64,000 bases of DNA from IMG/VR virus record IMGVR_UViG_3300025010_000010; one strand, 5' to 3'. Shown here piece by piece: positions 13,402 through 42,938 of this stretch (the first letter of the stretch is position 1; each line of letters opens with the position of its first letter). A program made the position numbers and the translations under genes. This DNA is from a virus. The notes below the pieces were generated by a model that was not told the origin of the DNA, did no database searches, and saw only the letters and a list, made by a program, of their open reading frames with translations.

Positions 13402-14037
13402 ATGAATACTCAACAATTCAGATCAGCAATTGACCAGAGAAAGGGTAAACGGGATCAAATTCAAAATCAAATTGATTCTACCCGTTTGGAATCCCAAAAA
13501 CTCAGAAGGGAACACAGGTTAGCGGAACGGGCCAAAATCCTAATTCAAACGGTTGCTCAGCAAACTCAGGAAGAGTTGAAATATCAATTATCGGAACTTC
13601 CCAAACTCGCATTGCAGGGGGTTTTTGATGATCCTTATGATTTTGAAGTTGCAATTGAATTGAGAAGGGGGAAAACAGAAGCTGATTTTTGGTTTGTTAG
13701 GGATGGACAAAGATTGAATCCTAAAAAATCAACTGGCCTTGGCTCCGTTGATATTGCTGGAACAGCATTAAGGGCTGCATTATGGAGCTTAAAAAGGCCA
13801 AGAAACAGGCCAATTATATTTTTGGATGAACCATTTAAACATTTGAAAGGGCAAGAAACAAATATCAGAGCCTTGGCAATGCTAAAAGAAATTTGTAAAC
13901 CAAGACCTGAACAGAATTGGCCTGGATTACAAATTATAATGATTGCGGACGAGCGGGCATCAAGAGACGACCTTGAATTGGTTGCCGATAAAATATTTGA
14001 ATTTTCGATTAAAAACAGGGAAACAAAAGTAAAATAA
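13402..14037 (+). CDS. SbcC/Rad50-like ATPase, C-terminal half (signature-like + Walker B/D-loop)
   Basis: N-terminal coiled coil, then KSTGLGSVDIAGTALRAAL (signature-like) and PIIFLDEPFKHL (Walker B). Confidence 0.5.
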   Translation: MNTQQFRSAIDQRKGKRDQIQNQIDSTRLESQKLRREHRLAERAKILIQTVAQQTQEELKYQLSELPKLALQGVFDDPYDFEVAIELRRGKTEADFWFVRDGQRLNPKKSTGLGSVDIAGTALRAALWSLKRPRNRPIIFLDEPFKHLKGQETNIRALAMLKEICKPRPEQNWPGLQIIMIADERASRDDLELVADKIFEFSIKNRETKVK

Positions 14038-14049
14038 AAGGAGGACAAA

Positions 14050-14358
14050 ATGTTTCAATCAATTACGAATGCTCATGTAATAGGAATGCTTGTAGCCATC
14101 GCAATTTTCTTTAGCGGTGCAATATCTGGAATATGGTGGAAAGAATTAATTAATTTGGGAATTGTTAAAAATGGGGATTTTTTATCGAAAAGTGTAGAAG
14201 AAAAAATTAAACAAAAAGCAGTAAAACTTGGATATGCATTTTGGGAAGTTGATGAATTTGGAGAAACAGCCTTCACCTGGAAGGAAAATGTTAATATCAA
14301 TATTTATCAGGCAGGTGGGATAACAAGCCTCTGCGGAGAACGGGAAAATAAATTATGA
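14050..14358 (+). CDS. membrane protein
   Basis: GGAGGACAAAATG start context; N-terminal TM (VIGMLVAIAIFFSGAISGIWW). This is the last AT-rich gene before the compositional switch. Confidence 0.55.
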   Translation: MFQSITNAHVIGMLVAIAIFFSGAISGIWWKELINLGIVKNGDFLSKSVEEKIKQKAVKLGYAFWEVDEFGETAFTWKENVNINIYQAGGITSLCGERENKL

Positions 14359-14362
14359 ACAA

Positions 14363-14495
14363 GTACGGCGGTGGCGGAAAGGGTAGACGCTATGGATACG
14401 GCCCAGACCAGTGCGATATGGCCAATCGAGCTGTCGTAAGCGCAAATGCCTAAGTTGCTGGAGTGCAGAGTTCGATTCTCTGCCAGCCGTACACC
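14363..14495 (+). tRNA. aberrant tRNA-like element (tRNA-Leu-type acceptor/D arm and canonical T arm, ~40 nt too long, no foldable anticodon arm); possibly pseudo, intron-bearing or a novel tRNA-derived RNA
   Basis: The 5' end reads ACGGCGG-TG-GCG-GAAAGGGTAGA-CGC, which has the class II Leu D-arm architecture. The T arm is CAGAG-TTCGATT-CTCTG (14466-14482). The 3' acceptor strand CC(A)GCCGT pairs with the 5' strand with one bulge, and the discriminator is A14491. Confidence 0.45.
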
Positions 14496-14508
14496 TTAAG
14501 GAGGGGAT

Positions 14509-14820
14509 ATGCACTATACTGATAGCATAATGGATGGGGTAGATTGGGACGCGCCAGGGAGTAAAGAAAAATTAAACACATCAACACTGACCTTGCTTGT
14601 TCCTGCTTTAAGGCAATATCAGCACAATGATGGATCAGGGTTGCTTGCTGGATATGATAGGAATGAAACGGAAAGAATTGTTGCTGGCCTGGCCGCCCGC
14701 ATCCAGCAGCTCGAAGCCGAGCTTGCGCAGAAGGATGAGGCGCTGAGGGAGATAGAAACCATTGCTATATTGACAAAATTTATGGATATAGCCGACAAGG
14801 CCAGGGAGGGGCTGAAATAA
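14509..14820 (+). CDS. hypothetical protein (GC-rich island)
   Basis: AAGGAGG RBS; 103 aa; coiled-coil C-terminus. Confidence 0.6.
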   Translation: MHYTDSIMDGVDWDAPGSKEKLNTSTLTLLVPALRQYQHNDGSGLLAGYDRNETERIVAGLAARIQQLEAELAQKDEALREIETIAILTKFMDIADKAREGLK

Positions 14821-15053
14821 TGGAGGGAGCAATGGACACGGAAGCGAATGAGAAAAGCGGAGAGGTTGGCGCTCCGGTTGAGGCTGTGGTTATTTCACGC
14901 CCAGACGGAATTAAAAAAATGTTGTGCATGGAGGTGTTGTGCGCCCGGTGCGGTGAGGTTAATCATCACGAATATACGTCGCTCCCCACATTGGTTGAGT
15001 GTTTTTTCTGTGGGCTGAAGGGAGAGATATCCGACAAGGCCAGGGTGAAATAA
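14820..15053 (+). CDS. hypothetical zinc-ribbon protein (GC-rich island)
   Basis: TAATG overlap with the upstream gene; CARCG...CFFCG. Confidence 0.5.
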   Translation: MEGAMDTEANEKSGEVGAPVEAVVISRPDGIKKMLCMEVLCARCGEVNHHEYTSLPTLVECFFCGLKGEISDKARVK

Positions 15054-15223
15054 AACGCCCCACGCCGGGAGGGAGGTCCAGCATGGGGCAACCGTCCCGA
15101 GGAGGTGTAGGACGGAACTATTGATTCATTTCCTTCAGAGCTTTCATCATTTTACGGTGCTTCTCTTCCCGCCGCCGTTCAATCAGCGGAACAAGATTCA
15201 ATATTTTCTGTTTCGGAGGTTTC

Positions 15224-15607
15224 TTAACTCCGGTAGAATTCGTGGTTTCCAATCTTTTTCACCAGTGCCATACTCGCGGCCCAGGGTGGCCTGACAACGG
15301 AAGGATTGAAATAATGATCAGCGCCGTGCAGGGTAAATCCAGTCAGCCGCTCTGCAAAGGCATCCACCACAGACACCGCACATTTAATCATTTCCTGCGG
15401 CGATTTGATTGCCGGGATAGATCCGCCATTGTACCATGAGAACTGTTGCGACGCCCTAATTACCTCTTCCACGTCCTGCTTCCGTCGCTGTGCCCTGTTC
15501 AGCACGACATGACAGATTGCAATGCGTCCCTCATTCGATTCGCCCCGCGCCTCAAAATAGAGGTTGATGGTCAGCCAGAACAGCCAATCAATCCATTTTG
15601 CGTTCAT
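15224..15607 (-). CDS. cell-wall hydrolase, SleB/CwlJ (Hydrolase_2) type; likely endolysin
   Basis: NLYFEARGES..G..AI.HVVLNR ... QFSWY ... HYF pattern of Hydrolase_2. Start trimmed to the ATG at 15607 after GGGAG. Confidence 0.75.
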   Translation of the reverse strand: MNAKWIDWLFWLTINLYFEARGESNEGRIAICHVVLNRAQRRKQDVEEVIRASQQFSWYNGGSIPAIKSPQEMIKCAVSVVDAFAERLTGFTLHGADHYFNPSVVRPPWAASMALVKKIGNHEFYRS

Positions 15608-15795
15608 TCGATCTCCCTGAAATAAATACACTCCTGCGGGCAACACGCCTTTGCCGTGAGTATCAGCTCCTCAATATCATCGCTGCGCCTGCAAACAATC
15701 TGCCGCCCCCCATACATCGAGACAAAACCGGGTACCCATTCCTCACAGCATTCGCACATCGTGCAGGCTGGCCCAGCGCAGAGGATGAATTTCAT
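15604..15795 (-). CDS. small Cys-rich protein
   Basis: ATGA overlaps at both ends; CAGPACTMCECCEE. Confidence 0.5.
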   Translation of the reverse strand: MKFILCAGPACTMCECCEEWVPGFVSMYGGRQIVCRRSDDIEELILTAKACCPQECIYFREIE

Positions 15796-16325
15796 GGCCT
15801 GATTGTCCAAACGTCTATTGGCAGGCCGTGGTGTCGAATATCCTTTTTCGTCTCTTCGACAAACCGCACATTCGCCGGGTTCTCCAGGATAAACAGAATG
15901 CCGCCCCTGTCCCTCCCGGACAACCGCATGTACCTGAGGGCCTGCCCCATGGCTTCGTAATGCTTGAACCCTGCGAACTCCACCTCAACCGCGTGGGTAT
16001 CGGTCAGGCAATCAATCTCCTTGCTCTGGATGGTGACCACCTTCCCGCCGTGGGCATCACACCATTTCTTTTGGAAAAAGGATTCCGGCAAGGGATGGCC
16101 GGCAATTGCACTTGTGGTCACCGCATGAGCCATAAAACAGATTGTTGTCAATATTTTGCAAAATCTGAGCGACAACATCATAAAAAACACCACCAGCAGG
16201 TAGATTCGTACCCGCAGAACCAGAAATAAATGAACGTCAGGACCGGGCCGAGGATCGATCCGCCAATTATCAGATATTGTTTTGTGAGCCTGGTCATGCT
16301 TCGTGATTGATCGGTGGGATTTCAA
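15792..16325 (-). CDS. membrane-anchored or secreted protein with a PD-(D/E)XK-like motif (start uncertain)
   Basis: Hydrophobic segment YLLVVFFMMLSL, then IDCLTDTHAVEVEFAGFK...GQALRY. The function assignment is tentative. Confidence 0.45.
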   Translation of the reverse strand: MKSHRSITKHDQAHKTISDNWRIDPRPGPDVHLFLVLRVRIYLLVVFFMMLSLRFCKILTTICFMAHAVTTSAIAGHPLPESFFQKKWCDAHGGKVVTIQSKEIDCLTDTHAVEVEFAGFKHYEAMGQALRYMRLSGRDRGGILFILENPANVRFVEETKKDIRHHGLPIDVWTIRP

Positions 16326-16764
16326 GCTTGTTTGCTATTCTACCCAAGTAAACCAGGATGTTTGTTTTCCAGCGCTGGTCAGTATCTTTCCACCGTTGGT
16401 CTTCTTCCCTGGCCTTGTCGCGGGAATGGTCCATCTCATCCTGCCTTACTGATACGTCTGTCACTTTATCAAAAATAGCCTTCCGACATTTAACTGAATC
16501 AGCTTCGTGGTCGGACCAAGTTATGCAATGCTCTTTAAGCGCCGTGATCTCCCTGCCGTGACTTGATACAGTTTGGCGCATATCATCAAGTTTAGACACG
16601 GTTGCCCGCATGTCCTCAAGTTTGGATACAGTTGCCCGCATATCCTCAAATTGCTGATCCTTTGCCCCCTCGGCTCTTGCCCGTCTACGGTCAAGTGAGA
16701 TTACCGTTCCGATTGTTACAGCAGCAGACAAAACAGTTACCACCACCGAAAGTTCAATGTTCAT
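16294..16764 (-). CDS. type II membrane coiled-coil protein with decapeptide repeats (i-spanin-like architecture)
   Basis: Start trimmed to the ATG at 16764 after AAGGAG. N-terminal TM (LSVVVTVLSAAVTIGTVI), then EDMRATVSKL x2.5 and a coiled coil. Confidence 0.6.
   Translation of the reverse strand: MNIELSVVVTVLSAAVTIGTVISLDRRRARAEGAKDQQFEDMRATVSKLEDMRATVSKLDDMRQTVSSHGREITALKEHCITWSDHEADSVKCRKAIFDKVTDVSVRQDEMDHSRDKAREEDQRWKDTDQRWKTNILVYLGRIANKLEIPPINHEA
16561..16667 (-). repeat. ~3.5 tandem copies of a 30-bp unit (in-frame decapeptide repeat)
   Basis: Units are gcatatcatcaagtttagacacggttgccc, gcatgtcctcaagtttggatacagttgccc and gcatatcctcaaattgctgatcctttgccc, plus a partial leading copy. Confidence 0.85.
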
Positions 16765-16828
16765 CCCCAGCTCCTTTGCCCGGCCTGTTGAGGCTCGCGA
16801 GCTTTCATTTTTATTCCCTTTGCCCGGA

Positions 16829-17038
16829 CTACTTACGAGCGTACTTTTTTGGTATTGACTTAGTCCGCCCCTGTTCGTCTTTCCAAAATTCCCAACTCGC
16901 CGTCCCGTCCGCGGACCAAGAAGTACAGCCATTGGTGAAGCAGACTGCCGTACCATTTTTCCAATGTGAGAAATACCGCTTCTCCCATTCCAGGCCTGTG
17001 TTGCTCACGTAAATCTTGTCGTTCTTTTTCATTTTCAT
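16829..17038 (-). CDS. hypothetical protein
   Basis: 69 aa; ATGA overlap with the upstream gene. Confidence 0.5.
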   Translation of the reverse strand: MKMKKNDKIYVSNTGLEWEKRYFSHWKNGTAVCFTNGCTSWSADGTASWEFWKDEQGRTKSIPKKYARK

Positions 17039-17481
17039 GGTTTGAGCGCCTCATTGTTGAAGTCAGGCCAGAGGCCTATTTCTTTTTGTTTCTGCTTCAA
17101 TTCCCAGAATATCTGGCCCAATGCCAATTTTGTATTGACACCGCTGTAATAGACCATAGCCGTCTGTCGGCGCAACATCTTCAACCATTCCCACCTCGAT
17201 TTGTTGTCTATGATGGAAAGCGTGTTTAGCAAGAAGAGCCTATTCATCAACGTGAACCCGTCTTGCGTCGGCTCAGTCATTTCCATATCAGTGTCGTGGA
17301 AATAGCAAGCAGGGCTTATCCTGAGGAACCAAATGCGCTCTGGTACGACTTTCTCCCAAAACCCTTGTCCTGCCCCGCAGCAATCAGGGAACTCGCTCAA
17401 CGTCTTGTATGGAACCTCTATGCCCTTGCGAACGATGAAGGGTACACCATCAAGAGTGATGAGATCGTAGGTGTCGAACAT
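17035..17481 (-). CDS. hypothetical protein (possibly DUF1353-like)
   Basis: 148 aa; CYFHDTDM and downstream hydrophobic helix pattern. Tentative. Confidence 0.5.
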   Translation of the reverse strand: MFDTYDLITLDGVPFIVRKGIEVPYKTLSEFPDCCGAGQGFWEKVVPERIWFLRISPACYFHDTDMEMTEPTQDGFTLMNRLFLLNTLSIIDNKSRWEWLKMLRRQTAMVYYSGVNTKLALGQIFWELKQKQKEIGLWPDFNNEALKP

Positions 17482-17483
17482 GA

Positions 17484-17684
17484 CTATTCGCCGCGATTCG
17501 CCTTTACTGCCTTGTGTGCAAACCCACCACCTACGAACAGCAGCCCCAACTCATCACAGACGCCAGCCCAAATGATAAGATGAGGAAAATAATTCCTTAG
17601 AATTACTGATACAGTAAAAAGAAGTGAACCGATTGCAACTTTCTTCCCGCTGAAGAACTCCCATGCTTGCTCAAAAATGTTCAT
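17484..17684 (-). CDS. small two-TM membrane protein (holin candidate)
   Basis: 66 aa with two hydrophobic spans and a charged C-terminus (KAVKANRGE). Confidence 0.45.
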   Translation of the reverse strand: MNIFEQAWEFFSGKKVAIGSLLFTVSVILRNYFPHLIIWAGVCDELGLLFVGGGFAHKAVKANRGE

Positions 17685-17899
17685 AGCCCACCTCCCGGAA
17701 CCAGTGGAATGGTAACTTCCGGTTTGATGTCAGGGGTATTCGTCGCCCGCTCGTCGGTGTTCGACTTCATGACCTCCGTAGAAAACGGACTGTGGCAGAT
17801 CATAAATGTCCCGCCTTCGTGAACATGAATCGTCAGGTTTCGGCTTGAGTTTGCGCACCCGGCCAGCATCATCACCGCAATCAGTATCAGGTATCTCAT
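17681..17899 (-). CDS. small lipoprotein (o-spanin-like)
   Basis: MRYLILIAVMMLAGC lipobox; ATGA overlaps at both ends. Confidence 0.6.
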   Translation of the reverse strand: MRYLILIAVMMLAGCANSSRNLTIHVHEGGTFMICHSPFSTEVMKSNTDERATNTPDIKPEVTIPLVPGGGL

Positions 17900-18090
17900 A
17901 AGCCCCTCCTGTTCCAAATTTTAACGTCATACCTTTGCACAATCATCCGCGCCCCTTCGTCCTCGTTGATATTCCATTCCTGGTTGTTCAGCGATAGGAA
18001 GCAGTCCGGTTTGTGGTTTATGGCAAATGCTATTTCCCCAAGCGGTTCCGGCTCTGCTTTGCACCACGGGCATTTTTTCATTTTGACCAT
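17896..18090 (-). CDS. small zinc-binding protein (Lar-like N-terminus, tentative)
   Basis: MKKCPWCKAEPEP...; TGATG overlap with the upstream stop. Confidence 0.4.
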   Translation of the reverse strand: MVKMKKCPWCKAEPEPLGEIAFAINHKPDCFLSLNNQEWNINEDEGARMIVQRYDVKIWNRRGL

Positions 18091-18875
18091 CAATATTTGT
18101 GGTAACACTCTCCGGTATGCTTCTGGTAATCAGCCAGCCCGTCCCCGCGCCCGTCTGAATAGTGCTGATACTTCTTCCCGCCGATGGTCCAGACGAACAG
18201 GCCAGCGGTCTGCGTTTCGCTCTTTTTCTGGAAGTAGTGATTCGTCCACTGCTCCCGGCCTACGCCCTTGTCAAGTCCGTCTTTCATATGGAAGTGAAAT
18301 GCGGTATCATGAAAGGTCACACTGGTCACATCATCCCCGGCACAGAATACAATCGTGGTGCCTTGGCCATTCCAACTCATGTGATTGATGTGGGCGAACC
18401 GCTTTGATTCTACCGCACCATCAGCAGGAGGCGTTACCGGAGGGGTAACTGGTGGAGGAGTAACAGTCTCGCCGCTGGGATAGCTGATATACGCTTTCTT
18501 GTCCCGGAAGCTGGCAGGAGCGATTACAACCATCGTCCGCCGAGTCTCCGAGTTGCGAACTTCAACTTGAGAGTCCTTATAGGCCATCGAAATGGTGTAC
18601 TTTTTGTACGCACCGTCAACCCCAATAAAGAGATCAAACTTGCCATAGTCCGCAATCGGCTTGGGGAAGTACCAATCTGTTTCAGCCGAGAAAACAGCCT
18701 TCACCCCTTGCTCCGTAACTGATGTCTGCACTGGAGGTGGAGGAGTTACAGGCGGAGGGGTAACTGGCGGATTCACCGGCTTGCCGTCGAACCAGCCACC
18801 GGGAAGCGTGCCCTTTGCATACGCTGAACCGCAGGTGATGAATATTGCCAGCGATAAAATGATAAGTCGTTTCAT
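18090..18875 (-). CDS. secreted protein with two proline-rich PPVTPP linkers
   Basis: Signal peptide MKRLIILSLAIFITCGSAYA. Pro-rich linkers PPVTPPPVTPPPP (nt 18732-18770) and VTPPPVTPPVTPP (nt 18426-18464). Confidence 0.6.
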   Translation of the reverse strand: MKRLIILSLAIFITCGSAYAKGTLPGGWFDGKPVNPPVTPPPVTPPPPVQTSVTEQGVKAVFSAETDWYFPKPIADYGKFDLFIGVDGAYKKYTISMAYKDSQVEVRNSETRRTMVVIAPASFRDKKAYISYPSGETVTPPPVTPPVTPPADGAVESKRFAHINHMSWNGQGTTIVFCAGDDVTSVTFHDTAFHFHMKDGLDKGVGREQWTNHYFQKKSETQTAGLFVWTIGGKKYQHYSDGRGDGLADYQKHTGECYHKY

Positions 18876-19069
18876 TTTTTCTCCTTATACTTCACAAAAA
18901 CGTGAGGATTGATGATATAATACCGCAGCAGCTCCCCGCAGTTCGGGCACGGCCCGATCATCTTCTTCTCGGTCGCGGTCTTGATAAACTGCTCTCCGAC
19001 AATCTGCTTCTTGCAGTACGGGCATGATCCGAGGGGACTTTTAACCTTGCCGCTGAGTTTGATTTTCAT
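18872..19069 (-). CDS. small zinc-ribbon protein
   Basis: Trimmed to the ATG at 19069 (ATGA overlap); CPYC...CPNC. Confidence 0.5.
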   Translation of the reverse strand: MKIKLSGKVKSPLGSCPYCKKQIVGEQFIKTATEKKMIGPCPNCGELLRYYIINPHVFVKYKEKK

Positions 19070-19647
19070 TCTCTCCCCCGCATCAGCCACGGAATAATTA
19101 CCGTAGCCAGTACAACCTGAGTTTCGTTCACCTGCTCCGGTACCCGCTTTTTGTGATATCTCAAACATGGCAGACAGGCCGGTACCGCGTTCATCGCCGC
19201 GTCAAATGCTGCTTGTGCCCCTGCGCCGTTGCTCATCTCTCGGTAAAAAGTATCCTGCCAAGCTACTGTTTGCGGCCAGCACTCGCCGCACTCCGACTCA
19301 GACATATTGCAGTAGCCAACCGATTCATCTGCCGACTCCGCAAAAGTCCCATCAGCAACCGAGCACATCCCGTCGCAGCTCGCGAAGAATCCCAGTCGGT
19401 ACCCGGTAAGCTGGTCCGGGGTGATATCCGGTCTGCTGCACAGCGGGGTGATAAGCTGCGGCCCACCATGTGCGATCTCGTAGAACTGATCGGGCGCATC
19501 CCAGAAAGCTGCGTTCATTGCCCACGGGTGCCACTCCCAGGTGCAGCCCTCGTAGGCCCCTTCGATCACGGTGCCATGAGCCTGGACAGCAAGCGTCAGG
19601 AGGAGGGCGAGAATTACGGCTATTGCCCATTTATCCCAGGTGGTCAT
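19066..19647 (-). CDS. secreted Cys-rich protein with C-terminal hydrophobic anchor
   Basis: Signal peptide WAIAVILALLLTLAVQAHG, many Cys, C-terminal VVLATVIIPWLM. Confidence 0.55.
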   Translation of the reverse strand: MTTWDKWAIAVILALLLTLAVQAHGTVIEGAYEGCTWEWHPWAMNAAFWDAPDQFYEIAHGGPQLITPLCSRPDITPDQLTGYRLGFFASCDGMCSVADGTFAESADESVGYCNMSESECGECWPQTVAWQDTFYREMSNGAGAQAAFDAAMNAVPACLPCLRYHKKRVPEQVNETQVVLATVIIPWLMRGRE

Positions 19648-19649
19648 TG

Positions 19650-20225
19650 TTAATACCCCAGCACCGTCATCATCTGAGCAGTCTTTTCGGCCTGTCCCGC
19701 TGCGCTATAATGCGTTCCATCTGTAGTCATCGTTGCCCCATCATCCCCGCCCTCAAGCCATACTCGCTCATCATCTCCCAAATGTGCTATCAACGGACGA
19801 TCAGATACAATGGTGCCTATTGCCGCCGCTATTTGATTCCACTCTGTTCCTATTCGTGCCCACGGTCGGCTCAAATAAAAATCAGCGTTTGGGCATACAG
19901 TAGCCAGTTGGTCTATAAGACTTTCATAGTCAGATACCCATACCGCAACTTCACCAGCATTGTCAAAATCAATACTCGCTTGATCGTTTACCCCAAAATT
20001 AATTAATATTTTTTTAGTATTCTCAGGATCGTCTATTTCGGCGATTTTGTCATCTATCACAGCAAGAAAACTGGCAACAGTAGCACCAGAAATCCCGATG
20101 TTAAAATGTGTCCAGCCTGTTTCTTCTTCAACGTTTACAGCAGCATCAAGATCACTCGGCCACGAATTAGGCCAGGTAGCGTCTGTTTTGCTATCCCCGG
20201 CCATAACTATATTCTCCGTGACCAC
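19650..20225 (-). CDS. SGNH/GDSL-family hydrolase (esterase or deacetylase)
   Basis: Block I MAGDSKT, block III FGVND, block V DGTHYS. Confidence 0.75.
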   Translation of the reverse strand: MVTENIVMAGDSKTDATWPNSWPSDLDAAVNVEEETGWTHFNIGISGATVASFLAVIDDKIAEIDDPENTKKILINFGVNDQASIDFDNAGEVAVWVSDYESLIDQLATVCPNADFYLSRPWARIGTEWNQIAAAIGTIVSDRPLIAHLGDDERVWLEGGDDGATMTTDGTHYSAAGQAEKTAQMMTVLGY

Positions 20226-20243
20226 GGGTATATAGCATGTATC

Positions 20244-22352
20244 TCATAACCCAACGCATAAATAATTGAATTTTCCACTTTGTATATCGCCAGAAAATGT
20301 AACTGTTATTGCGGAGGTTGACGATGCTGATAAGTATGATGTTACGTTAGCTTGAGGAATAACTATGCATGACGGTTCAGCTGTAAATGCAGACGCGAAA
20401 GTTACTGTGCATGCAGTAACCGCGCCCCCTCCGCCAACTGTTACAATCCCTGATGTATCTGAACCTGTGATTGTCGGAGATGTCCCGCACGACGATACAG
20501 CCGGATCAGCCCCAGATGATACAATGTGCGATTTATTTGTTATCCTAAGTTGCGGAGTACCACCAACCTGTAAATTAACAATGTTATGCTCGCCAGTACC
20601 AATGGCTGTTTCTGTCCGGTTGATAAACAAATCATTAGCCCCGGCAGTATCAGTCTGGTTATATATTGGGAGTATTGCTACACCATTAAAGGTCTCGCCG
20701 GTCCCTTGCGTTAGTGTATGCCCTGATCCTCCAAAAAATTCGACTCCGTTATCCGTATTGTTGTATGTATTGGTCCCGTTAATAGCCAGAGTGCTATTAT
20801 TTGATCCATGTTTTATTAGTGGCCCAACAAATCCAGCGGTCGTAAGGCCCCCCGAAATAACGGAATCACCAGCATTTGATACATTAAATCTTGACGTTCC
20901 ATCCTTTCCAGACCAAATCAAATATGATGTACCAGGGGATGATGTATCGGTTTGGTTGATATACAGTCCGTAGTCAGCTCCACTTGTCGCCTTATTCGTT
21001 GTATACGACAAATTCAAAGCCTTTTCGTCCCCCGTTGCTTCGTCCAGCACGATAGGTGTTGTCGGGGTAATAGCGGTTGTCACTGCAGCGGTAAACGCCC
21101 CGGCACCACCATCGGCCTTGCAGTACCAAAGATCAGCATCGGCGTCATAGGCCACGACATAGTCATCAGTGCAACCCTCAGCCGTTGCAGCGGTCATGTC
21201 GAGCAGTTGTTTAGTCGCCGCCCCGTTGTAGTATCTCAACGCACCGCCGGTAAAATTGGTTACAGTCGAGTCGTGCCTGGTATACCCAGCTGTAGCCGTT
21301 ACGTCAGCGTTGGACGAAGGCAACTTGAACTGTGTGTCAACTGCAAAGTTGTTCGCGGTCCACAGGGAGGCGGAAGAGGTAAGTGTTGCGCTCTGGTCAT
21401 TCTGCCCGGATATCACCGCGCCGTCACCGAAGAAGACATCAGCCCATTCTACCGTTGCGGAGCCGAGTGCAATGGTGTTTGCGGCGTTGGGGACGGGGGC
21501 GCCTGTCATGGCAACCGAGCCGTCTGCCAGGAAATCACCAGCCCCAGCAGCTTCGGCCTTGCAGTAAAACAAATCTGCGTCGGCATCGTAGGCTACGACC
21601 TGATCGTCTGTACATCCTTCAGCCGTTGCCGCTACCATATCCACAGCCTGCCGGATATTCGTACCGTCATGCCACCTGACTGCACCGTGCGCATGATTGG
21701 TCACTGTCGTGTCATGGACAAGATACCCGGCGGTCGCGGTTGGGTCCGCATTGGCTGCAGGAAGCCGCCATGTGGCAGATGCAAAATCGAAGGCATTGGC
21801 CGGCGCGGTCCCCCCAGGGATATCGGCAAGATTTACCTGCCCAGCACCGGAGCCCCAATCAACATGCGTGTCTTTGACGTTATCGGTTCCTGCAGTGAGC
21901 AAGGCTGTTGGATCAGTTTCAGCAGTGAGATACGCCCCAAGATCGGAAATATCTGACTCGGTAATCCCGGCAGGCTCATACGTCCCCGACAAGTCCGGAA
22001 TATCATCAGCCACCAAAGCCCTGAAAGTAGGCGCGGCGGCTGCCCCGGAGGTCGGCCCGGCAAGCACATAATTCGCCACCTGCACATCCGCGCTCAACTC
22101 CTGACCCGCTGAGATACCAAAAATGTCAGTCAGGCTGGCGGCGAGAGTTACCGCATCGTGACCACCGGCAAGGGTTTCGATCTTTGCCGCAACTGCGGTA
22201 GCCGGAGCGTAGCAGTTTGCATATTGCGCCTGCCAGGACTCCGCGTTGTAGGGGATGGGGGCGCGGCAGGGGGGAGGGATGGCTGGTGGCCCAGCGGCCA
22301 TCACGATTGAATAATAAAATAATATAAATAAAACAACTATTAATTTTTTCAC
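20244..22352 (-). CDS. fibre/receptor-binding-like repeat protein with N-terminal signal-peptide-like segment (GTG start)
   Basis: 702 aa, rich in Ala/Gly/Thr/Asp/Asn. It carries the motif YVLAGPTSGAAAAPTFRALVADDIPDL, which I recall from phage tail-fibre proteins. Two ~72-aa paralogous modules. It lies downstream of the tail genes. Confidence 0.6.
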   Translation of the reverse strand: MKKLIVVLFILFYYSIVMAAGPPAIPPPCRAPIPYNAESWQAQYANCYAPATAVAAKIETLAGGHDAVTLAASLTDIFGISAGQELSADVQVANYVLAGPTSGAAAAPTFRALVADDIPDLSGTYEPAGITESDISDLGAYLTAETDPTALLTAGTDNVKDTHVDWGSGAGQVNLADIPGGTAPANAFDFASATWRLPAANADPTATAGYLVHDTTVTNHAHGAVRWHDGTNIRQAVDMVAATAEGCTDDQVVAYDADADLFYCKAEAAGAGDFLADGSVAMTGAPVPNAANTIALGSATVEWADVFFGDGAVISGQNDQSATLTSSASLWTANNFAVDTQFKLPSSNADVTATAGYTRHDSTVTNFTGGALRYYNGAATKQLLDMTAATAEGCTDDYVVAYDADADLWYCKADGGAGAFTAAVTTAITPTTPIVLDEATGDEKALNLSYTTNKATSGADYGLYINQTDTSSPGTSYLIWSGKDGTSRFNVSNAGDSVISGGLTTAGFVGPLIKHGSNNSTLAINGTNTYNNTDNGVEFFGGSGHTLTQGTGETFNGVAILPIYNQTDTAGANDLFINRTETAIGTGEHNIVNLQVGGTPQLRITNKSHIVSSGADPAVSSCGTSPTITGSDTSGIVTVGGGGAVTACTVTFASAFTAEPSCIVIPQANVTSYLSASSTSAITVTFSGDIQSGKFNYLCVGL
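21114..21770 (-). repeat. internal duplication: two ~72-aa modules (21555-21770 and 21114-21329) within the fibre-like gene
   Basis: Copy 1 is WRLPAANADPTATAGYLVHDTTVTN...ATAEGCTDDQVVAYDADADLFYCKA. Copy 2 is FKLPSSNADVTATAGYTRHDSTVTN...ATAEGCTDDYVVAYDADADLWYCKA. Confidence 0.85.
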
Positions 22353-22383
22353 AATTTATCAACCTCCTTTTATATTCTGCTTT

Positions 22384-22389
22384 ATTATA
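22384..22389 (-). promoter_or_regulatory. candidate -10 box (TATAAT on - strand) upstream of the fibre-like gene
   Basis: The - strand reads TTTTAGGATATAATAAAGCAGAATATAAAAGGAGGTTGATAAATTGTG. This gives TATAAT, then AAGGAGG, then the GTG start. Confidence 0.3.
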
Positions 22390-22421
22390 TCCTAAAACTC
22401 TTATATTTCTAAATTTTATTT

Positions 22422-22925
22422 TTATCTATCCGCATACAATCCATAAAACTTCAAATAAAATTTTGAACCAGAAACAGCATTGCCAGTAGTTGATATTGTC
22501 CAAATTTCAGAATATACCGGCCACAAATAGGTTGAAATACCAAGAAATGTATTTTTGCCCAATGTTTCCTGTTTCGTTGTTTCATCAATAAAATTCGTTC
22601 CATTTGCCCCAAGTAAGGAAAGTCCATCGGAATCAGTAATGATCAAATCAGTTTCATCAGTTGGAGCAGGAGAAGAAGGAATATATTTGATTTTATAAAT
22701 ATATTGTCCTGACAATTTCTGCATTGCAGATTCATCACCATTCGAGGCCAAAGGGGCAGAAAGAGAATTATCAGTATGATGAGTGCAAAGAATAGTCAGA
22801 ACTGTTCCAACTTTATTTCCCCGATAATCTTTGACAACTTCCCAATCTGTTTCTGTACAAGTTCCAGCGGCAAAAACATTCCCGTAAAACAATAATGCAA
22901 ATAATACAACAATAAACTTTTTCAT
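22422..22925 (-). CDS. secreted protein (signal peptide paralogous to that of the fibre-like gene)
   Basis: MKKFIVVLFALLFYGNVFAAG; GGAG RBS. Confidence 0.6.
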   Translation of the reverse strand: MKKFIVVLFALLFYGNVFAAGTCTETDWEVVKDYRGNKVGTVLTILCTHHTDNSLSAPLASNGDESAMQKLSGQYIYKIKYIPSSPAPTDETDLIITDSDGLSLLGANGTNFIDETTKQETLGKNTFLGISTYLWPVYSEIWTISTTGNAVSGSKFYLKFYGLYADR

Positions 22926-22936
22926 CTCATTTCTCC

Positions 22937-23203
22937 TTAATTTCTTTGAATCTGTTGACCAGCCTGTTTTGACATTCTTTTTGAGATGATTATATCCCTT
23001 TCTTTTGAGAAAATTACTTGAGCCTGATAAGGAATATGAATCATTTTATTATCTATTGTTGTAAAAAACCTAAATGGTTCAGGAAGGTTTATAAATTCCC
23101 CGGAATCAACCAGTCTTGAAGTAATTCCATCGCCTATTACATTTTTAATTGTTGTCCAAAACCAATCTTCTTTCAATTTATATTTAACCGTGTAACTGTC
23201 CAT
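22937..23203 (-). CDS. hypothetical protein
   Basis: 88 aa; AAGGAG RBS. Confidence 0.55.
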   Translation of the reverse strand: MDSYTVKYKLKEDWFWTTIKNVIGDGITSRLVDSGEFINLPEPFRFFTTIDNKMIHIPYQAQVIFSKERDIIISKRMSKQAGQQIQRN

Positions 23204-23236
23204 TTTAATTTTCTCCTTATTGTGGTTAATAAGAAA

Positions 23237-24169
23237 TTAAGCAACCTTCATGATATAAAAACATGAAAGAAAAAGTGGCCTATTTTCATTTGAACTTGCT
23301 GCTGTTGCATCTACTGCTGTATTTCCGGTTGCTGCTGCTGTATTCCCGCTTGCTGCCCCAGTATTCGTATAATTTGAAGCATAAGTTGAACCATGTTCAT
23401 GAGTTGCCCCAGAACCAGCAGAAGAAGAAGTATAAACACCTCCTAATCCTTTATTCGAAATATATTCAGCGCTATCAATCGTCCCGGAAGTAACCGTATT
23501 GATCATCTGAACTGTATGACTATGCGCTGGCAATTGAGCAATTGTCAATGCAACAGGAGGAGTTACATGTGTATGACTCTGCATCGAATGAACATGACTA
23601 TTCAATCCGTGCGTATGACTATTCATTCCATGACTATGGGAATGGGTATGGCTATTTGAAGCAGCGCCACCAATACTGCCAGCAGTTGTATCCCCCATAA
23701 TAAAACGAGAATCCGTTAAATTTGGAAGATATCGACTTGCCCCGTTAAATATCCCAGTTCCAGTATTTAAGGCAGCGCCGTTACAAACATACCAATTATC
23801 CGCATTAAGATAAGCATTTGCTAAAGCAACACTATTTCCTCCAAGCAAAACATCTGTATAACTTCCATTTGATCCGTCCCCAAAATATCCACCAATCCAA
23901 GGAACAATTGAACCAGCAGGAATTCCGGCGTCTACAGGTTGACGTTGAAGTTTCCAACGCTTATCCCCAGCAGCGGAATCATCAGGGGAAATAATACTCG
24001 GAGAACTTTCAGCAGCACCCGAATCAACATCTAATTGATAAAGATAAAATGTTGTTCCATTTGCAACAATACATAAATCCTTATCATTAAGAATTGAACT
24101 GTCAATTCCATCAAGATCAGTTGCCGCACCACCAGTAATCCCTTGCCGATAATAAACAATAACAGCCAT
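23237..24169 (-). CDS. tail fibre protein with phage tail-collar domain and His-rich repeat
   Basis: IVPWIGG...NWYVCNGAALN...YLPNLTDSRFIMG (tail-collar pattern). It also has HTHSHSHGMNSHTHGLNSHVHSMQSHTH and LTIAQLPAHSH (MdpB/COG4675-like). Confidence 0.65.
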   Translation of the reverse strand: MAVIVYYRQGITGGAATDLDGIDSSILNDKDLCIVANGTTFYLYQLDVDSGAAESSPSIISPDDSAAGDKRWKLQRQPVDAGIPAGSIVPWIGGYFGDGSNGSYTDVLLGGNSVALANAYLNADNWYVCNGAALNTGTGIFNGASRYLPNLTDSRFIMGDTTAGSIGGAASNSHTHSHSHGMNSHTHGLNSHVHSMQSHTHVTPPVALTIAQLPAHSHTVQMINTVTSGTIDSAEYISNKGLGGVYTSSSAGSGATHEHGSTYASNYTNTGAASGNTAAATGNTAVDATAASSNENRPLFLSCFYIMKVA

Positions 24170-24963
24170 TATCTTACCTCCGTTAATTGATATGTCAATT
24201 CTGTATATCCATTGAGTTCTGGTGAGTGCCTTCCTTTAGGATCAACCGTAAATCTTGCATAAACAAGCCATCTCGAATCATTCAAATCAGTAATAAGCCA
24301 AGCAGCAGGCCGCATCTTAACAATCTTTTTTACAAGAAATAAAAAATCATTAAAGGCACTATCCCTTGTAATTATGTGTCTATTGTCGAATGTTCTTAAA
24401 ACATCCCTATCTTTTACAAATACCGCCCCAGAATTATATTCATCAACAAAGGACAAATCTTTTGTCCCCTCCATAATTTCCCCATGAGGACCGGCAAAAG
24501 ATAAAATCAGTCCAGCAACAATAGTTCCGGCAAATACCGCAGCACCGGCAGAATTAGCAAGAGAAACAATTATTTCAAGATCAGCCGATACTTGATCCCA
24601 TTGAATCATAAATGCTCCGGTCTCATCGTCTTGGGCAGCAATAGTTTCTGTAGGAACAATAAAACTAGACCATTCAATACCGGCTTCCCATTCAACCCCA
24701 TCATCACCAGAAGATAAAACGGCTACTTCCCATTGAATTAAATTCGGATCACTTATTTGAGCCGAAATACTATCTGCATTTGTATTAAAAATTGCAAAAC
24801 CTGAACATAAACCAGAAATTGACACGGTTAAAGTTTCAGAAGCAGTATCCCCCTTCCAAATATGTCCAGGATATTCATCGAGCAAATTCTCGTCAGCATA
24901 ATCTGCACTTTCTTCCGATGAAGCAAGAACACCCGTAATTAAATTTTCAGAAATTACTTTCAT
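24169..24963 (-). CDS. minor tail / baseplate-associated protein (by position)
   Basis: 264 aa; overlapped starts and stops with both neighbouring tail genes. Confidence 0.5.
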   Translation of the reverse strand: MKVISENLITGVLASSEESADYADENLLDEYPGHIWKGDTASETLTVSISGLCSGFAIFNTNADSISAQISDPNLIQWEVAVLSSGDDGVEWEAGIEWSSFIVPTETIAAQDDETGAFMIQWDQVSADLEIIVSLANSAGAAVFAGTIVAGLILSFAGPHGEIMEGTKDLSFVDEYNSGAVFVKDRDVLRTFDNRHIITRDSAFNDFLFLVKKIVKMRPAAWLITDLNDSRWLVYARFTVDPKGRHSPELNGYTELTYQLTEVR

Positions 24964-26540
24964 GCTATTACTCCATCACCGGAAACAATTATTTTATAAT
25001 TCGCTAAATCAAAAGAAATATTTCTTGTATAAAGTGTAGCATCAATTCCAGCAACTGAATTATCAGGAGGAACCATTGTATCAGTAAACGTAATTGGTTG
25101 TCCCGGAACAGGAACATTTGCCGCAAGTAAATCCATTTTTAATGTAATCTGCGGCCTTTCAAGAATTGTTTTTCTATTCCCGAGATGAGTGGCCATTGCA
25201 GAAGCAGAAGCAACCACACTTGTATAAATTCCGCGATTACCCGAGCCAGAATAATTATACCAACTAAAATTAAACCCTTCTGTAAAGTCATCATAAAATA
25301 ATTCTTCCAATATTAAACCATTACTATCAACTTCATAGACAGCAACAAAATCAATATCCATTATCCCGGCGGCAGATGACGAATTAAATACCAATACCGG
25401 CCTAATATATTCTGTTATTACTGCACCTAAACTTGCATCATACATTGTTCCTGGACTAGCAATATTTGGTGCAGGAATATATGTAGCAGGATCGCTCCAG
25501 TCCTTTGAATAACCAGTACTTATTGTCCAATCAACATCATCTAATGATGCATTATTAGCACAATGCCAACAGGCAAGAGCATAATTTGTACCACCATTAC
25601 GGTCAACAATTGTTGTTCTATCAGATGCATAACCAAGAAATCCAGCAACAAAAGTACCAGTTCCGGCAGGCCGCCGAACTTTAACTTTCATCATATAATA
25701 TTTATTGGCTTCATAAGCGATAAAAAATGCTTGCGGCATTAACCAAAGTTGATCATTGCCCGAATTATTCCCGACCCTTCCATACAAATGTTCAATACTA
25801 TTTGCAACATCGGATGATTCAACAGTTCCATAAGCATAAGAACCAGCCAATTTATATTTCTTTATTGCCTCACTTGTATATTGTTTATATGCAGGTAAAT
25901 ATTTATATTCAGGTGGATAAATCCTTATTCCAGGAGTAAGAGCTGATCCATTACTCAATAACATATCTACAAGATAAAGAGTCCCATTTTTAATATAAAA
26001 AAGATGATTTGTTGCTTCCGCCAATTTGGAAAGCATATCAATTACAATTTCACCTTCTTCAAAAACATTATAAACACTTGGCTGTGTTACCCTTGCATAA
26101 GTAGTATTTAATGTCAACCCAAGATAAGCAGAGGCACAATATGTATCAAATACATCTGATAATGTATCATCAATATAAGTTTTTTCAGAAAGAGTTAATG
26201 AATATTCTTCTCCAAACAATCCATAAGAAATTTCAGATTGTCCTATTGATTCAAGATGAGCGGTTCCAGAAAACATTAATACTGCCGCTTCTTCCGTTGT
26301 ATCCGTTATATAAATTGATATTGCACAAGAAACAGGAGGTGGATAATCAGAAGCAAATAAATCAGGAGATAATACAATTTTGCCTGATTCTGGTTCAACA
26401 TATCCACCAACATAAGATTTTATCGAATATCTAGGTGGAGTCAAATCCTTAATTTTCCTCACCCATTGATGAGTCAAATAGCAATATTCATCGGAAATCC
26501 GATTAACTACACTATTTATTGTAAATTCGACAAGTATCAT
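24960..26540 (-). CDS. distal tail / tail-tip protein (by position)
   Basis: 526 aa, immediately downstream of the tape measure gene. Confidence 0.5.
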   Translation of the reverse strand: MILVEFTINSVVNRISDEYCYLTHQWVRKIKDLTPPRYSIKSYVGGYVEPESGKIVLSPDLFASDYPPPVSCAISIYITDTTEEAAVLMFSGTAHLESIGQSEISYGLFGEEYSLTLSEKTYIDDTLSDVFDTYCASAYLGLTLNTTYARVTQPSVYNVFEEGEIVIDMLSKLAEATNHLFYIKNGTLYLVDMLLSNGSALTPGIRIYPPEYKYLPAYKQYTSEAIKKYKLAGSYAYGTVESSDVANSIEHLYGRVGNNSGNDQLWLMPQAFFIAYEANKYYMMKVKVRRPAGTGTFVAGFLGYASDRTTIVDRNGGTNYALACWHCANNASLDDVDWTISTGYSKDWSDPATYIPAPNIASPGTMYDASLGAVITEYIRPVLVFNSSSAAGIMDIDFVAVYEVDSNGLILEELFYDDFTEGFNFSWYNYSGSGNRGIYTSVVASASAMATHLGNRKTILERPQITLKMDLLAANVPVPGQPITFTDTMVPPDNSVAGIDATLYTRNISFDLANYKIIVSGDGVIA

Positions 26541-29500
26541 TTAAAACACCATTGGGCGACCTTTCATCCCCCGTAAATCAGCTTGAACCCTATTATTATC
26601 AGCAATCTTCACAATTTGAGCATCAAGCTCTTTTGAGGCAGTAACATTTACATCAACAGAAATTTTTCTTGTTGTACTATCATTTGAATTTGAGCCGTAA
26701 TTTTCCCCTGAAGGATAGTCATTTCCTCCATCCCCGACACCGGCAAGCAAATCATTAATATTATAAACAGTATCCTCTGCAATTCTTACCATTCCATCTG
26801 CTGCCGTTCTTACTGCATTATGAACGTCACCAAGAGCATTTTCAAGATCGGTAAGGCCATAATCAAGAGTTCCAACAGTATTTACAAAATTCCGCAAACC
26901 ACTTGATGCAGAAGTAAAACTTCCTTCTATTCCTAACACATCAAGTCCTAATTGCTCAATAACAACACCAACTTGATCACTTGCTAAACCAAGTCCCTTT
27001 AATTCTGATTTAAGTTTTGAAGTATCTTTAGAAACACCAGAAATAATATTACTTACTTCATCAAAAATAATTGTTAATTCTTCACCCTCAACTCCCATAT
27101 TTTGTAAAGATTCAATTGCAATATCCAAACTTGTTTTCTGAGCATCGGTAATATTAATTAATTCTTCGGAAAGTCCTACAACGCCTGATTTTGCTTCAAT
27201 CATTGATGCAGCAGTGGACCGTCCCATCGTAGTTGCAAGAATTTCAAATGATTTAAACTCCCCACCTAGATCAATCCACATCTTTTTCTGGTTGTCATAC
27301 ATTTGCAAATTGATATCATTTATACTGTCTGCGGTTTCTCTAATCCCCAACCCGAGCCGTTTTGAGCGAGTCAGGATTGAACTTTCAGCATCCATCATAA
27401 ATGCTTCAAGTCCACCAAATACCGGGTTCATGCCCTGCTTAAAAGTATCCCCCATCGCATAAGCAAAAGCATCAGGGCCAATACCCATTTGATTCATCAA
27501 TTCTGACATAGGGGGGACGTCCTCTTTCATCATCTGTGCAGCCCAAAGAGAAATCCCAATAGCAAAAACAGAGGCAACTGCTGCACCACCTATCCCGCCG
27601 CTAACCCCTCCTAATCCAGCACTACCACCTTCTTCAGCAGCAATCCCACCTACAACACCCTCATATGCCCCACCATACATCCCAGTAATCGCGGCTTCCT
27701 GGGCGGCTTGAGCCGCTATTTCAGCGGCAATAGCCTCATAAGCAGCAGAACCCACAACCGTTCCTGCATATCCAACCCCGCCACCAACAGGACCACCAAC
27801 GGATACTCCAGATGCAGAAGTAGGAAGTAATGAACTTCCACCAGTTAAATATTGATACCCAGAATAAAGAGTTCCAAGCGATCCTAAACCGCCACCAAAT
27901 CCGCCGCCGCCACCACCACTTGAACCACCACCAATAAAGCTACCAATTGCTCCAAGAATCCCCCCAGAACCACTTAATAGATTGCCAATTGCCATCCGGC
28001 CCATATTCATAAGCCATGCAGCAACCATTTCGGCAAGCATATTTTTAAACATGCTAAGGAATGAATCAAAACTTATCTCACCTGTTTTTATCCATTCAGC
28101 CAATATATCTTGTATTCCATTATATGCTTCATCCCAACGATCTTGAATATATTTTGCAGTTTCATCTGTATCGGACTTATATAATTCATCAGTATTTATA
28201 ATCTCGGCCCTTAATACATCTTGGCCTTGTTGGAAATCAGATTGCATTACATCATAAGACATGCCTGTTTCCATTACTGATTCAGTAAGACCATCTTGTG
28301 CCAATCTCGCTTGTTTGGAGGATACTGTTAAATTGTCAAGTGCTTCTTTTAATCTATCGGCATTTGACGCACTCCCCCCAAGAGCTTCCTTCAAAAGCAA
28401 TTCGGCTTCATTTGCGTCTCTTATTTCCTTTTCAAGAGGGAGGTATGTATCAACAACCCTTTGAAGTGCGTTTGCATGATCTTTTGCTGCTTTTGTTACT
28501 TTTTCAGTTGTATCAACATTATTTTTATTACCCTTATTTAAATCATTAACTACGTCAGCTGTATCACCAACAACTTTAGCAACTTTTTTATAAACTCCAG
28601 CCTCTTTATACATTTCATCCGCAATTTCACGAGTTACAACAATTTCCTTATCCATTTCTGATACAAGTTGATTTATCTTCTCCTTATGATTATCAACCGC
28701 TACAGAAGAAATATTTAAACTATTACCAACATTAATAATTGCAGAACCAATCTTATCACCAAATGGCATAGCCGCCATTAAATTTCCAAGGTCAACAATC
28801 CATTCCTTGAATTTTAATTGCATTTCATAAATAATGGTATCCCATCCACTTTTAATTCCTTCAAAGGCAATTAACGCACCATATTTAATATACGTCCAAG
28901 ATTGATCTAAACTCGTTACAAGATTTACTCCAGCCTTTCTTACAATCTCAAATTCATCATATAAATATTTGCCTATTTGATATCCAATCCAACCAGCAAA
29001 TATCATATTTACAGCATTGCCAAGTGTCAAAAAAGAAAAAGTCGCCTTCTTTGCCGCTGCATCAGCAACAACAATTGCTTCTGCATGTCTTGCAGTCGCC
29101 CCTGCCGCTATAATTTGTGCTCTTGAATTATTAGCTACAGCGGTAGATAATTGAGCTTGTACAATTGCAGCTTCTTGAGTTGTTACGACATATCTCTGTT
29201 GTAACATTGAAACATCAGCAGTCGCCCTTCCCTCTACAATTAAAGTTTGAATCTGATTTTGTTCAGCAGTAATTAAGGCAAGTTTTGAACGTAATGAATT
29301 TATTTCAGAAGCAGACTGTTGAACCCTTGCAATAGCCAATGCCTCTACAGAAGCCAACTCTTGAACATTGGCTGCAGTTTTCATTGCAGTCGCTTGAGCA
29401 CTACTCAACATTACTGCATTTCCGGCAGCAACTTGCGTATGAAATTGAACAGTTGCTGCAACTGCCTTATATTTTAATGCTATCCAAGCACCAATAGCTG

Positions 29501-40626: not shown

Positions 40627-41252
40627 ATTAATTTCTCCAGCTTCATAAATGGAAAATCCTTTATTGCACTGTCCGGTGTTGCGTTGATGATTTCCAACCC
40701 AACTTCTGCCGCATCCCTTGCAATATACGGCCAACAGCGCATATGATTTTTATACGGGTCAAATGTCTTCGCTCTGGTCGGATAAAAATCATGAAAATTA
40801 TGTCGATCATTATCAGGATGCATATCAAACCCAAGTAAAACAATCCGCCGAGCACCAAACCAATAGGCAATATTAATAGCACTGGCACCAGAGTTGCCAT
40901 TCCAAGAAACAAATCCAACTTTCTTTGTTTCAATGCCATAATTTTTCGATCTTCCAACACGACGAATCCCCCTCCATCCTTTTCCAAGTTCTGGAACCCG
41001 CCCACAGCTAGTCACCTTAATTCCGGGCCACTGGTCGATACTTGGGGCAAGCTCCCTGAACTGACAATCCCCAAAGTAAGTTACGTCCACCCAAGGGTAA
41101 ACTCTGAATGCTTGATTTACTCCAATTACTCGTTTCAATCTTAAGCAATTCAGTTCCATACCCTTCAAAGATGGCCCGCCACCGATAATAAATATGGTAC
41201 TCTCCGACCATAGCTTTGGTATTACCCAGGGAGTTCTTTGACAGGCCGGCAT
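40623..41252 (-). CDS. DUF115/Maf-like putative (CMP-)sugar transferase (tentative)
   Basis: IFIIGGGPSLKG....LKRVIGVNQA pattern recalls the MAF_flag10/MptE-like fold. Confidence 0.4.
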   Translation of the reverse strand: MPACQRTPWVIPKLWSESTIFIIGGGPSLKGMELNCLRLKRVIGVNQAFRVYPWVDVTYFGDCQFRELAPSIDQWPGIKVTSCGRVPELGKGWRGIRRVGRSKNYGIETKKVGFVSWNGNSGASAINIAYWFGARRIVLLGFDMHPDNDRHNFHDFYPTRAKTFDPYKNHMRCWPYIARDAAEVGLEIINATPDSAIKDFPFMKLEKLI

Positions 41253-42910: not shown

Positions 42911-42938
42911 AATATATCTCCTTTTAAATTGATTAACC

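Follow-up and report, generated by a model that had tools for sequence, protein, structure and literature searches.

The exchange of tail-fibre and host-range genes between phages is described by modular theory and is apparent in the side-fibre mosaics of P2, Mu, P1 and lambda. In the invertible G and C segments of Mu and P1, a constant Sc part is joined to alternative Sv or Sv' parts by Gin or Cin, while the lambdoid morons (lom, bor and the HK97 morons) constitute extra transcription units. The present analysis concerns a fibre-like gene located in a 64-kb stretch of viral DNA (IMG/VR record IMGVR_UViG_3300025010_000010, hereafter the window; about 3 kb of the phage genome falls outside it). 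This gene (20244-22352, minus strand) encodes a 702-aa product, P0001, and consists of an AT-rich leader-coding segment followed by a GC-rich cargo. Its upstream neighbour (22422..22925, minus strand, leader at 22863-22925) encodes a 167-aa product, P0002.

What happened at this locus is an instance of a known process, the modular evolution of phages through mosaic exchange of modules; its breakpoint is unusually sharp and lies in frame. It is quite likely that a 7.1-kb module was replaced by recombination with GC-rich phages, the left crossover lying in a short box that encodes Ala-Gly-Pro-Pro (A-G-P-P) and the right one at or next to a terminator box. As in modular fibre exchange, the lineage-specific 5' part is retained and the 3' part is replaced as a block together with functionally linked neighbours, the breakpoints lie at short conserved boxes, and the phage encodes recombination genes. 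The differences are that the retained 5' part is here a signal peptide plus four codons instead of a virion-attachment domain, that donor and recipient are more than 20 points apart in GC content, and that fibre and lysis genes move as one unit, bounded by a leader-coding box and a terminator box. The Mu and P1 segments share with this locus a constant 5' coding part that serves alternative host-range cargos in frame, but the window contains no alternative cassette or inverted repeat, and the variants are separate genomes. Like a moron, the gene is downstream of the tail genes and has its own promoter-like site, an atypical composition and a predicted exported product. Unlike a moron, the block holds a lysis cassette with the only recognisable endolysin and fills the same slot as the corresponding block of a sister phage. 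Classification as a moron was therefore rejected, the block being a replacement in an orthologous slot and not an added gene.

With respect to export, the mosaic adhesive trimer (MAT) fibres of Bdellovibrio (PMC10769870) carry Sec leaders, are related to phage tail fibres, are mosaic, and act outside the cytoplasm. By analogy of architecture they are the closest documented exported fibre-like family: a conserved N-terminal part following the signal peptide is combined with swappable distal domains, a likeness that would be architectural only. MAT genes are chromosomal and their products lie on the predator surface, whereas the P0001 gene belongs to the late operon of a phage, with tail genes on one side of it and lysis genes on the other. 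For Porphyromonas phages, whose genes likewise use the host general secretion signal, Matrishin et al. (2023; PMC10367356) name capsid, spanin and unknown proteins with signal peptides and read them as envelope modifiers; the term tail fibre does not appear in that paper (0 occurrences). The literature searched held no direct precedent for a Sec signal peptide on a tail fibre; matches on the 'signal peptides' of extracellular contractile injection systems (eCIS) concern cargo tags, and in a rumen-phage paper signal peptides are merely counted.

The left junction and the exchanged module

Composition switches at about 22290, from a GC content of 0.31-0.38 upstream to 0.55-0.60 downstream, and the flip falls directly after the A-G-P-P codons. 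The leader, MKKLIVVLFILFYYSIVMAAG (codons 1-21; 22290..22352, minus strand), is AT-rich (GC 0.27) and native to the backbone. Its GC content at third codon positions (GC3) is 0.29; GC3 is 0.57 over codons 22-250, 0.57-0.60 over codons 22-450, and 0.18-0.25 in the neighbouring backbone tail genes.

Parentage was assigned by comparison with L001, a sister phage, and L002, a GC-rich (~55% GC) phage contig. By blastn, L001 and the window are 86.6% identical over 27898-22285, a span that includes the tail genes, promoter, ribosome-binding site (RBS) and leader, after which the two have nothing in common until 15149. In L001 and in L005-L008, which come from other samples, the same promoter, RBS and leader (the latter with one extra codon) are followed after A-A-G-P-P by a different, 181-aa protein, itself followed in L001 by a leader-bearing 602-aa protein. 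The cargo of the window is found elsewhere. In L002, a P0002 homologue precedes a GC-rich leader and GPPAIHPPCRAPIPYNA, so that the stretch MRRLILAFILLALAGPALAGPPAIHPPCRAPIPYNA presents the window's mature N-terminus behind a GC-rich leader; window and L002 are 77% identical over 96 nt, and 67% identical at the amino-acid level. The Geobacter-binned protein P0004 (Geobacter sp. by the source's name) is 63% identical to P0001 over residues 1-179. Both P0004 and P0137, the L002 homologue of P0001, have their own GC-rich leaders and then the same (A)GPP...PPCRAPIPYNA start. In a three-way nucleotide alignment, the window agrees with L001 upstream of the A-G-P-P box and with L002 downstream of it, the parentage changing within GCT GGN CCN CC, at GCTGGNCCNCC. 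Codons 20-23, GCT GGG CCA CCA (22284..22295, minus strand), are the only stretch common to backbone-type and donor-type sequences and constitute the crossover interval. The join is in frame because the exchange partners were orthologous, already leader-bearing genes aligned in register.

These comparisons bear out the central proposal of a first-pass annotation made from the window alone, namely that the gene turns GC-rich right after the leader at an in-frame recombination junction, with promoter, RBS and leader native and the mature part foreign: L001 shares the 5' part, and L002 and P0004 share the cargo. The relatives with the same leader and another cargo that it had suggested looking for thus exist, and the sequences, coordinates and peptides that it quoted were all recovered. 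The promoter-like site (TTTAGA-18-TATAAT; 22384..22413, minus strand) lies upstream of the P0001 gene in the AT-rich 5' flank and matches at 10/12 positions; it is weak taken alone, such sites being common in AT-rich DNA (9 observed in the region vs 4.7 expected), and the stretch is near-identical in L001. The Shine-Dalgarno sequence AAGGAGG (22363..22369, minus strand), 10 nt upstream of the GTG start, is also conserved there.

The exchanged unit is larger than the mature protein to which the first-pass annotation had confined the foreign DNA. It comprises the fibre-like gene and a lysis cassette (15150..22283, ~7.1 kb, minus strand), shows no nucleotide homology to L001 over this interval, has GC3 values of 0.37-0.64, and corresponds in L001 to a block of 4.8 kb that has an analogous set of genes. 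The homology resumes near a GC-rich box of ~65 nt (15051..15116, minus strand), ~100 nt past the endolysin stop codons, which is nearly identical in the window and L001, whereas the orthologous endolysins are only 29% identical. This terminator-like box contains two hairpins, the second of which has a GC stem of 12 bp with a run of U behind it; its folding gave z = -3.2, with 0/200 shuffles folding equally well, and an Rfam search over 14000-15400 gave no match. Given these conserved ends, the cassette is bracketed by promoter, RBS, leader and AGPP on the left and by the terminator box on the right. The earlier interpretation therefore stands as regards the junction, the native 5' part and the foreign cargo, but not the size of the unit nor, as described below, the 'duplicated' leader and the supposed oddity of a Sec leader.

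The block is itself a patchwork. The GC-rich N-terminal domain and shaft of mature P0001 (codons 24-450; 21003..22283, minus strand; GC3 0.57-0.60) are related to P0137 and P0004, and near residue 450 (residues ~420-465; ~20950-21100 in the window) a second composition break takes GC3 from ~0.55 to ~0.33. The C-terminal part (codons 451-702; 20244..21002, minus strand; GC3 0.33) is probably a separately acquired tip. Its start, of the ...SPIVLDEATG type, is common to P0004, to which residues 410-606 match at 37%. The adjoining SGNH/GDSL hydrolase gene (19650-20225) has a GC3 of 0.375, and the pattern suggests that tip and hydrolase came from another source than the shaft.

The following course of events would account for the locus. 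A late unit for host interaction and lysis would have been exchanged as one module with related GC-rich phages of the same gene order, that is, a P0002-like gene followed by a leader-bearing fibre-like gene. The left crossover would have occurred within the first gene of the unit, in the ~12-nt A-G-P-P box that both lineages conserve where the signal peptide gives way to the mature protein, and the right one at or beside the conserved terminator box with its two hairpins, past the endolysin gene. The recombinant would retain the backbone promoter, RBS and AT-rich leader and express a foreign mature protein; the chimeric precursor would enter the Sec pathway and lose its leader at V-M-A|A-G-P-P, after which the mature part would fold with disulfides outside the cytoplasm. 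The sequence comparisons demonstrate the breakpoints, the other cargo behind the same leader, donor-like cargo behind other leaders and the coexistence of the variants, whereas export and processing are predicted. The crossovers could reflect relaxed or microhomology-mediated exchange; alternatively, a closer donor that has not been sampled may have taken part in homologous exchange of the ordinary kind. Phage recombinases have been described as carrying out relaxed homologous recombination (PMC3945230), and interdependent genes of lambdoid phages as being co-transferred (PMC9836094).

The locus offers an unusually well-resolved natural case in which host-range and lysis functions were swapped together: each breakpoint can be placed in a short conserved box (~12 nt on the left, the terminator box on the right), and one aquifer community contains forms that resemble the recipient, forms that resemble the donor and forms with the alternative cargo. 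It shows that a signal peptide alone can act as a constant 5' adapter behind which the host-recognition cassette is interchangeable, which constrains models that require the fibre N-terminus to match the baseplate.

Continuity of the junction and competing readings

Continuity and variation were followed on Logan contigs from four sequencing runs aligned on 14000-24000. The assembly graph branches at 22273-22291, and the backbone is about three times as deep as the block (~260 vs 77 in run X1). A loose end at 22291 reads, once reverse-complemented, as L001-type cargo, which places the two cargo variants together in the same groundwater samples. The window-type leader can be told apart by markers at 22317 (no AAT insertion), 22337 (C), 22347 (T) and 22368, and its depth (83.5/54.7/2.9 in X1/X4/X5) tracks that of the block (77.1/48.9/3.9), which the depth of the L001 type (96/98/7.5) does not. 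Another loose end in X1, at 22277, belongs to a contig that matches the window cargo from codon 26 downward and decodes upstream, on the minus strand, to ..ADEHDHPPV.., a P0004-type N-terminus. A donor-like lineage seems to live in the same groundwater community as the recombinant.

The metagenomic origin of the window raises the question of whether an AT-rich phage contig was misjoined to a GC-rich one at a short shared sequence, all the more as several variants that share sequence on either side of the junction coexist and as the unitig graph branches precisely there. Such a chimera is very improbable. The sequence shared at the join, ~12 nt, is well under assembler k-mer sizes; the 702-aa open reading frame (ORF) is present at 100% identity on 12 contigs (4 JGI and 8 ENA) from independent assemblies, the longest reaching 68 kb; the block is joined to the backbone at its other end too; the depth of the window-specific leader follows that of the block in three runs; and window-type block pieces recur without differences in two independent studies, X5 and X8. 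A programmed switch within one genome, by an inversion like that of the Mu and P1 G segment or by a shufflon, would also produce a constant 5' part with alternative 3' parts, both at similar depth in the same samples, yet it can hardly be credited here: neither blastn nor tblastx found L001-type cargo in the window, the leader/AGPP box is not repeated there in either orientation, the window ORFs that were scanned yielded no gene of the invertase type, and the variants differ by ~13% across the shared backbone, as different genomes do. Equally slight is the chance that the composition jump is a by-product of a fibre protein rich in Ala, Gly, Thr and Pro, with no foreign origin involved. Mature P0001 is indeed rich in these residues, whose codons are GC-rich at first and second positions, but the jump extends to third positions, GC3 stays high in downstream genes that encode no fibre (0.47-0.64), L001 has unrelated sequence at this place, and the nearest relatives of the cargo are on GC-rich contigs.

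Replacement of the module by recombination between phages, which is further favoured by the phage's own recombination genes (UvsX-like, exonuclease, endonuclease VII and SbcCD-like), has several points to contend with. Among the contigs listed, none bridges 22273-22300, where the unitigs break, and continuity of the junction rests on the independent assemblies and on depth covariation instead of counted reads. L001 and L002 are relatives of the true parents and not the parents themselves (L002 is 77% identical over just 96 nt), and for this reason the event cannot be dated. The join of AT-rich leader to GC-rich cargo may have arisen earlier, in an ancestral phage, and have been transferred since then through homology in its flanks. 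For an exchange of the UvsX/RecA type, twelve nucleotides are short, and the export step is deduced from sequence features alone.

Sec-type leaders of P0001 and P0002

Both gene products begin with a Sec-type leader, MKKFIVVLFALLFYGNVFAAG in P0002 and (V/M)KKLIVVLFILFYYSIVMAAG in P0001. Each starts with M-K-K, as expected of the n-region of a signal peptide. In P0001, the hydrophobic h-region is LIVVLFILFYYSIV (mean Kyte-Doolittle value of 2.89 for the best 11-residue window), and the first 18 residues include no D or E. The c-region V-M-A|A-G-P-P has small residues at -3 and -1 and avoids Pro at +1. Cleavage at A-A-G|P would place Pro there and is unlikely; the equivalent site in L002 is A-L-A|G-P-P. 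P0001 has 10 cysteines, in five apparent pairs, and P0002 has the pair C23/C47; such pairing gives indirect support to export. From these features P0001 is predicted to be exported by Sec, to be cut by signal peptidase I, most likely at V-M-A|A-G-P-P, and to be disulfide-bonded outside the cytoplasm. A leader of this kind on a fibre-like protein had struck the first-pass annotation as odd, but in this family it is common: 74 of 117 full-length homologues (63%) have one, 13 of these 74 continuing with x-P-P, as do 9 of 10 relatives of the L001 cargo. The genes of the donor side, encoding P0137 and P0004, also have leaders of their own. The siphovirus-type AT-rich groundwater lineage thereby joins the phages whose fibre-region proteins carry export signals.

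The 602-aa protein of L001 (8013-9821) has a hydrophobic leader as well, followed by an N-terminus, ..ATNYYVRSDGS.., typical of right-handed beta-helix enzymes; by these features it is a candidate exported depolymerase. It is conceivable, though on balance unlikely, that the leaders are functional in a common scheme, in which the phage would route its distal host-recognition proteins (P0002, P0001 and the beta-helix enzyme of the sister phage) through Sec for folding and disulfide formation in the periplasm. Proteins matured there would meet the particle built in the cytoplasm at lysis, or would act as free receptor binders. If so, the leader/A-G-P-P boundary would represent a general 'plug' for the exchange of cargo between phages of very different composition.

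The leaders of P0001 and P0002 were described in the first-pass annotation as a duplicated segment, clearly homologous at the nucleotide level. They align without gaps and in register, with 44/63 nt and 14/21 residues identical, and the flanks of the alignment are at background (25/85 nt upstream, 15/87 downstream). The likeness is real at the protein level and exceeds what two hydrophobic AT-rich leaders would be expected to show: comparison with 81 other leader-like N-termini gave a mean of 5.1 identical residues (sd 2.0, maximum 10), among 3321 leader pairs no unrelated one reached 13, and the four other leaders of the AT-rich window score 3-6/21. With MKK...AAG held fixed, 8/15 positions of the hydrophobic cores are still identical, where permutation gives 2.07 on average (P = 1.9e-4). 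At the nucleotide level, however, the claim does not hold. The 13 identical residues considered for codon sharing use the same codon in 7 cases, where backbone codon usage predicts 6.46, and blastn-short retrieves the P0002 leader only as a 26-nt match (E = 7.1). Since there is no excess of synonymous identity, the nucleotide identity of the leaders is what their amino-acid identity and the AT bias of the codons predict, and a recent nucleotide duplication is not visible. Convergence of two Sec leaders in one AT-rich phage, shaped by the export machinery of one host in two families that both end in A-A-G, with neither duplication nor conversion, is accordingly a possibility to be taken seriously, albeit a doubtful one. 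It agrees with the codon count, with the non-significant blastn-short match, and with the fact that the AAG end is family-wide in both families, but it does not readily explain a protein identity so far beyond that of the other leaders and leader pairs, nor the similarity of the cores. It is also at odds with the GC-rich relatives, in which the corresponding leader pairs within a phage, compared by hand at their N-termini, have an unremarkable 7, 5 and 6 of 21 residues in common. As judged from these alignments, the likeness probably goes back to an old duplication or conversion within the lineage, other lineages being without such pairs; a recent copy is not seen.

Protein families, phage context and further features

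P0001 has no match in Pfam, PHROGs, NCBIfam or PDB sequences and, in the absence of a match to a curated fibre family, is called 'fibre-like' and not 'tail fibre'. Its gene has the position of a fibre gene, lying beyond the tape-measure and tail-tip genes of the late operon. Of its 141 metagenomic homologues, 119 were examined; they match it in separate pieces, the mosaic behaviour typical of fibres. Its neighbours in the Atlas are weak, viral and fibre-like. Monomer models are poor (pLDDT 0.57 in the Atlas; an AlphaFold model of residues 425-702 made without an alignment, pLDDT 35.7, is unusable). A 73-residue segment is duplicated within P0001 (~21550-21770 and ~21110-21330), the copies being 66% identical and each having its own Cys pair; the unit, ...ADxTATAGY..HD.TVTN...ATAEGCTDD.VVAYDADADL.YCKA, recurs in many metagenomic homologues and in virus vir555.

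The same databases (Pfam, PHROGs, NCBIfam and PDB sequences) gave no match for P0002, in whose family an A-A-G-T following the leader is invariant and the C23/C47 pair nearly so. Its model is a jelly-roll (pLDDT 74) with uncharacterised viral proteins as confident fold neighbours. Foldseek found no PDB match to the model at E <= 0.001, and the best PDB Z score, 7.3 by VIA-align, to phage capsid cement proteins, is not discriminating and serves as a lead only. A GTDB scan of 185,579 representative prokaryote genomes detected no relatives of P0002.

Phage relatives in GenBank are limited to distant archaeal-virus matches. Methanosarcina virus MetMV (L017, 67.8 kb) encodes a leaderless P0002 homologue (42771-43196) after a ~3000-aa protein, and Caudoviricetes sp. 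vir555 (L018), assigned to Methanomicrobiales, encodes a leader-bearing 769-aa fibre-like protein (38538-40844). An archaeal host was not adopted on the basis of these matches, as the phage genes include those for a SleB-type endolysin and for proteins with a lipobox. The source's name for P0004 makes Geobacter-like bacteria a lead for the host.

Rather than a prophage in a host chromosome, the window represents the greater part of the ~66-kb genome of an uncultured, AT-rich tailed groundwater phage. Contigs encoding P0001/P0002-type proteins are 67-68 kb long, and on the 104.8-kb metagenome contig C687J13239_1000034 (L007/L008) the tail/fibre region is present in two copies 66 kb apart, which implies that a ~66-kb genome was assembled as a concatemer or in circularly permuted form. 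The sequencing runs containing window DNA are groundwater metagenomes, and no RNA data set is among those listed. The minus-strand arm runs from the terminase through the tape-measure protein (1295 aa; 26541-30428) and tail proteins, with tail/fibre-like matches at 24960-26540 and 23237-24169, to the two leader genes; the plus-strand arm encodes DNA polymerase, clamp loader, UvsX-like recombinase, exonuclease, endonuclease VII and SbcCD-like proteins. Within the tape-measure gene, 27898-30273 has no nucleotide homology to L007/L008 over ~2.4 kb, both flanks being 87-93% identical. The edge of this gap coincides with a GC-rich bump at ~27300-28000, and the gap looks like another mosaic patch.

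In the swapped block, the SGNH/GDSL hydrolase gene is followed by genes for two leader-bearing proteins without family match, at 19066-19647 and 18090-18875, the 261-aa protein among them having PPVTPPP-type proline repeats. Next come genes for a lipobox protein (17681-17917), a holin-like ORF (17484-17684), a transmembrane (TM) coiled-coil protein (16294-16956) and the SleB-type endolysin (15224-15646); Zn-ribbon ORFs also lie within 15150..22283. Next to the right-hand boundary, the region 14035-15150 is a small-indel patchwork between the window and L001, with many contig joints in the sequencing runs. It includes a box at 14697-14816, inside a 103-aa plus-strand ORF, that is 94% identical to L001 and also 87% identical over 55 nt to another GC-rich phage contig, L003 (14460-14512).

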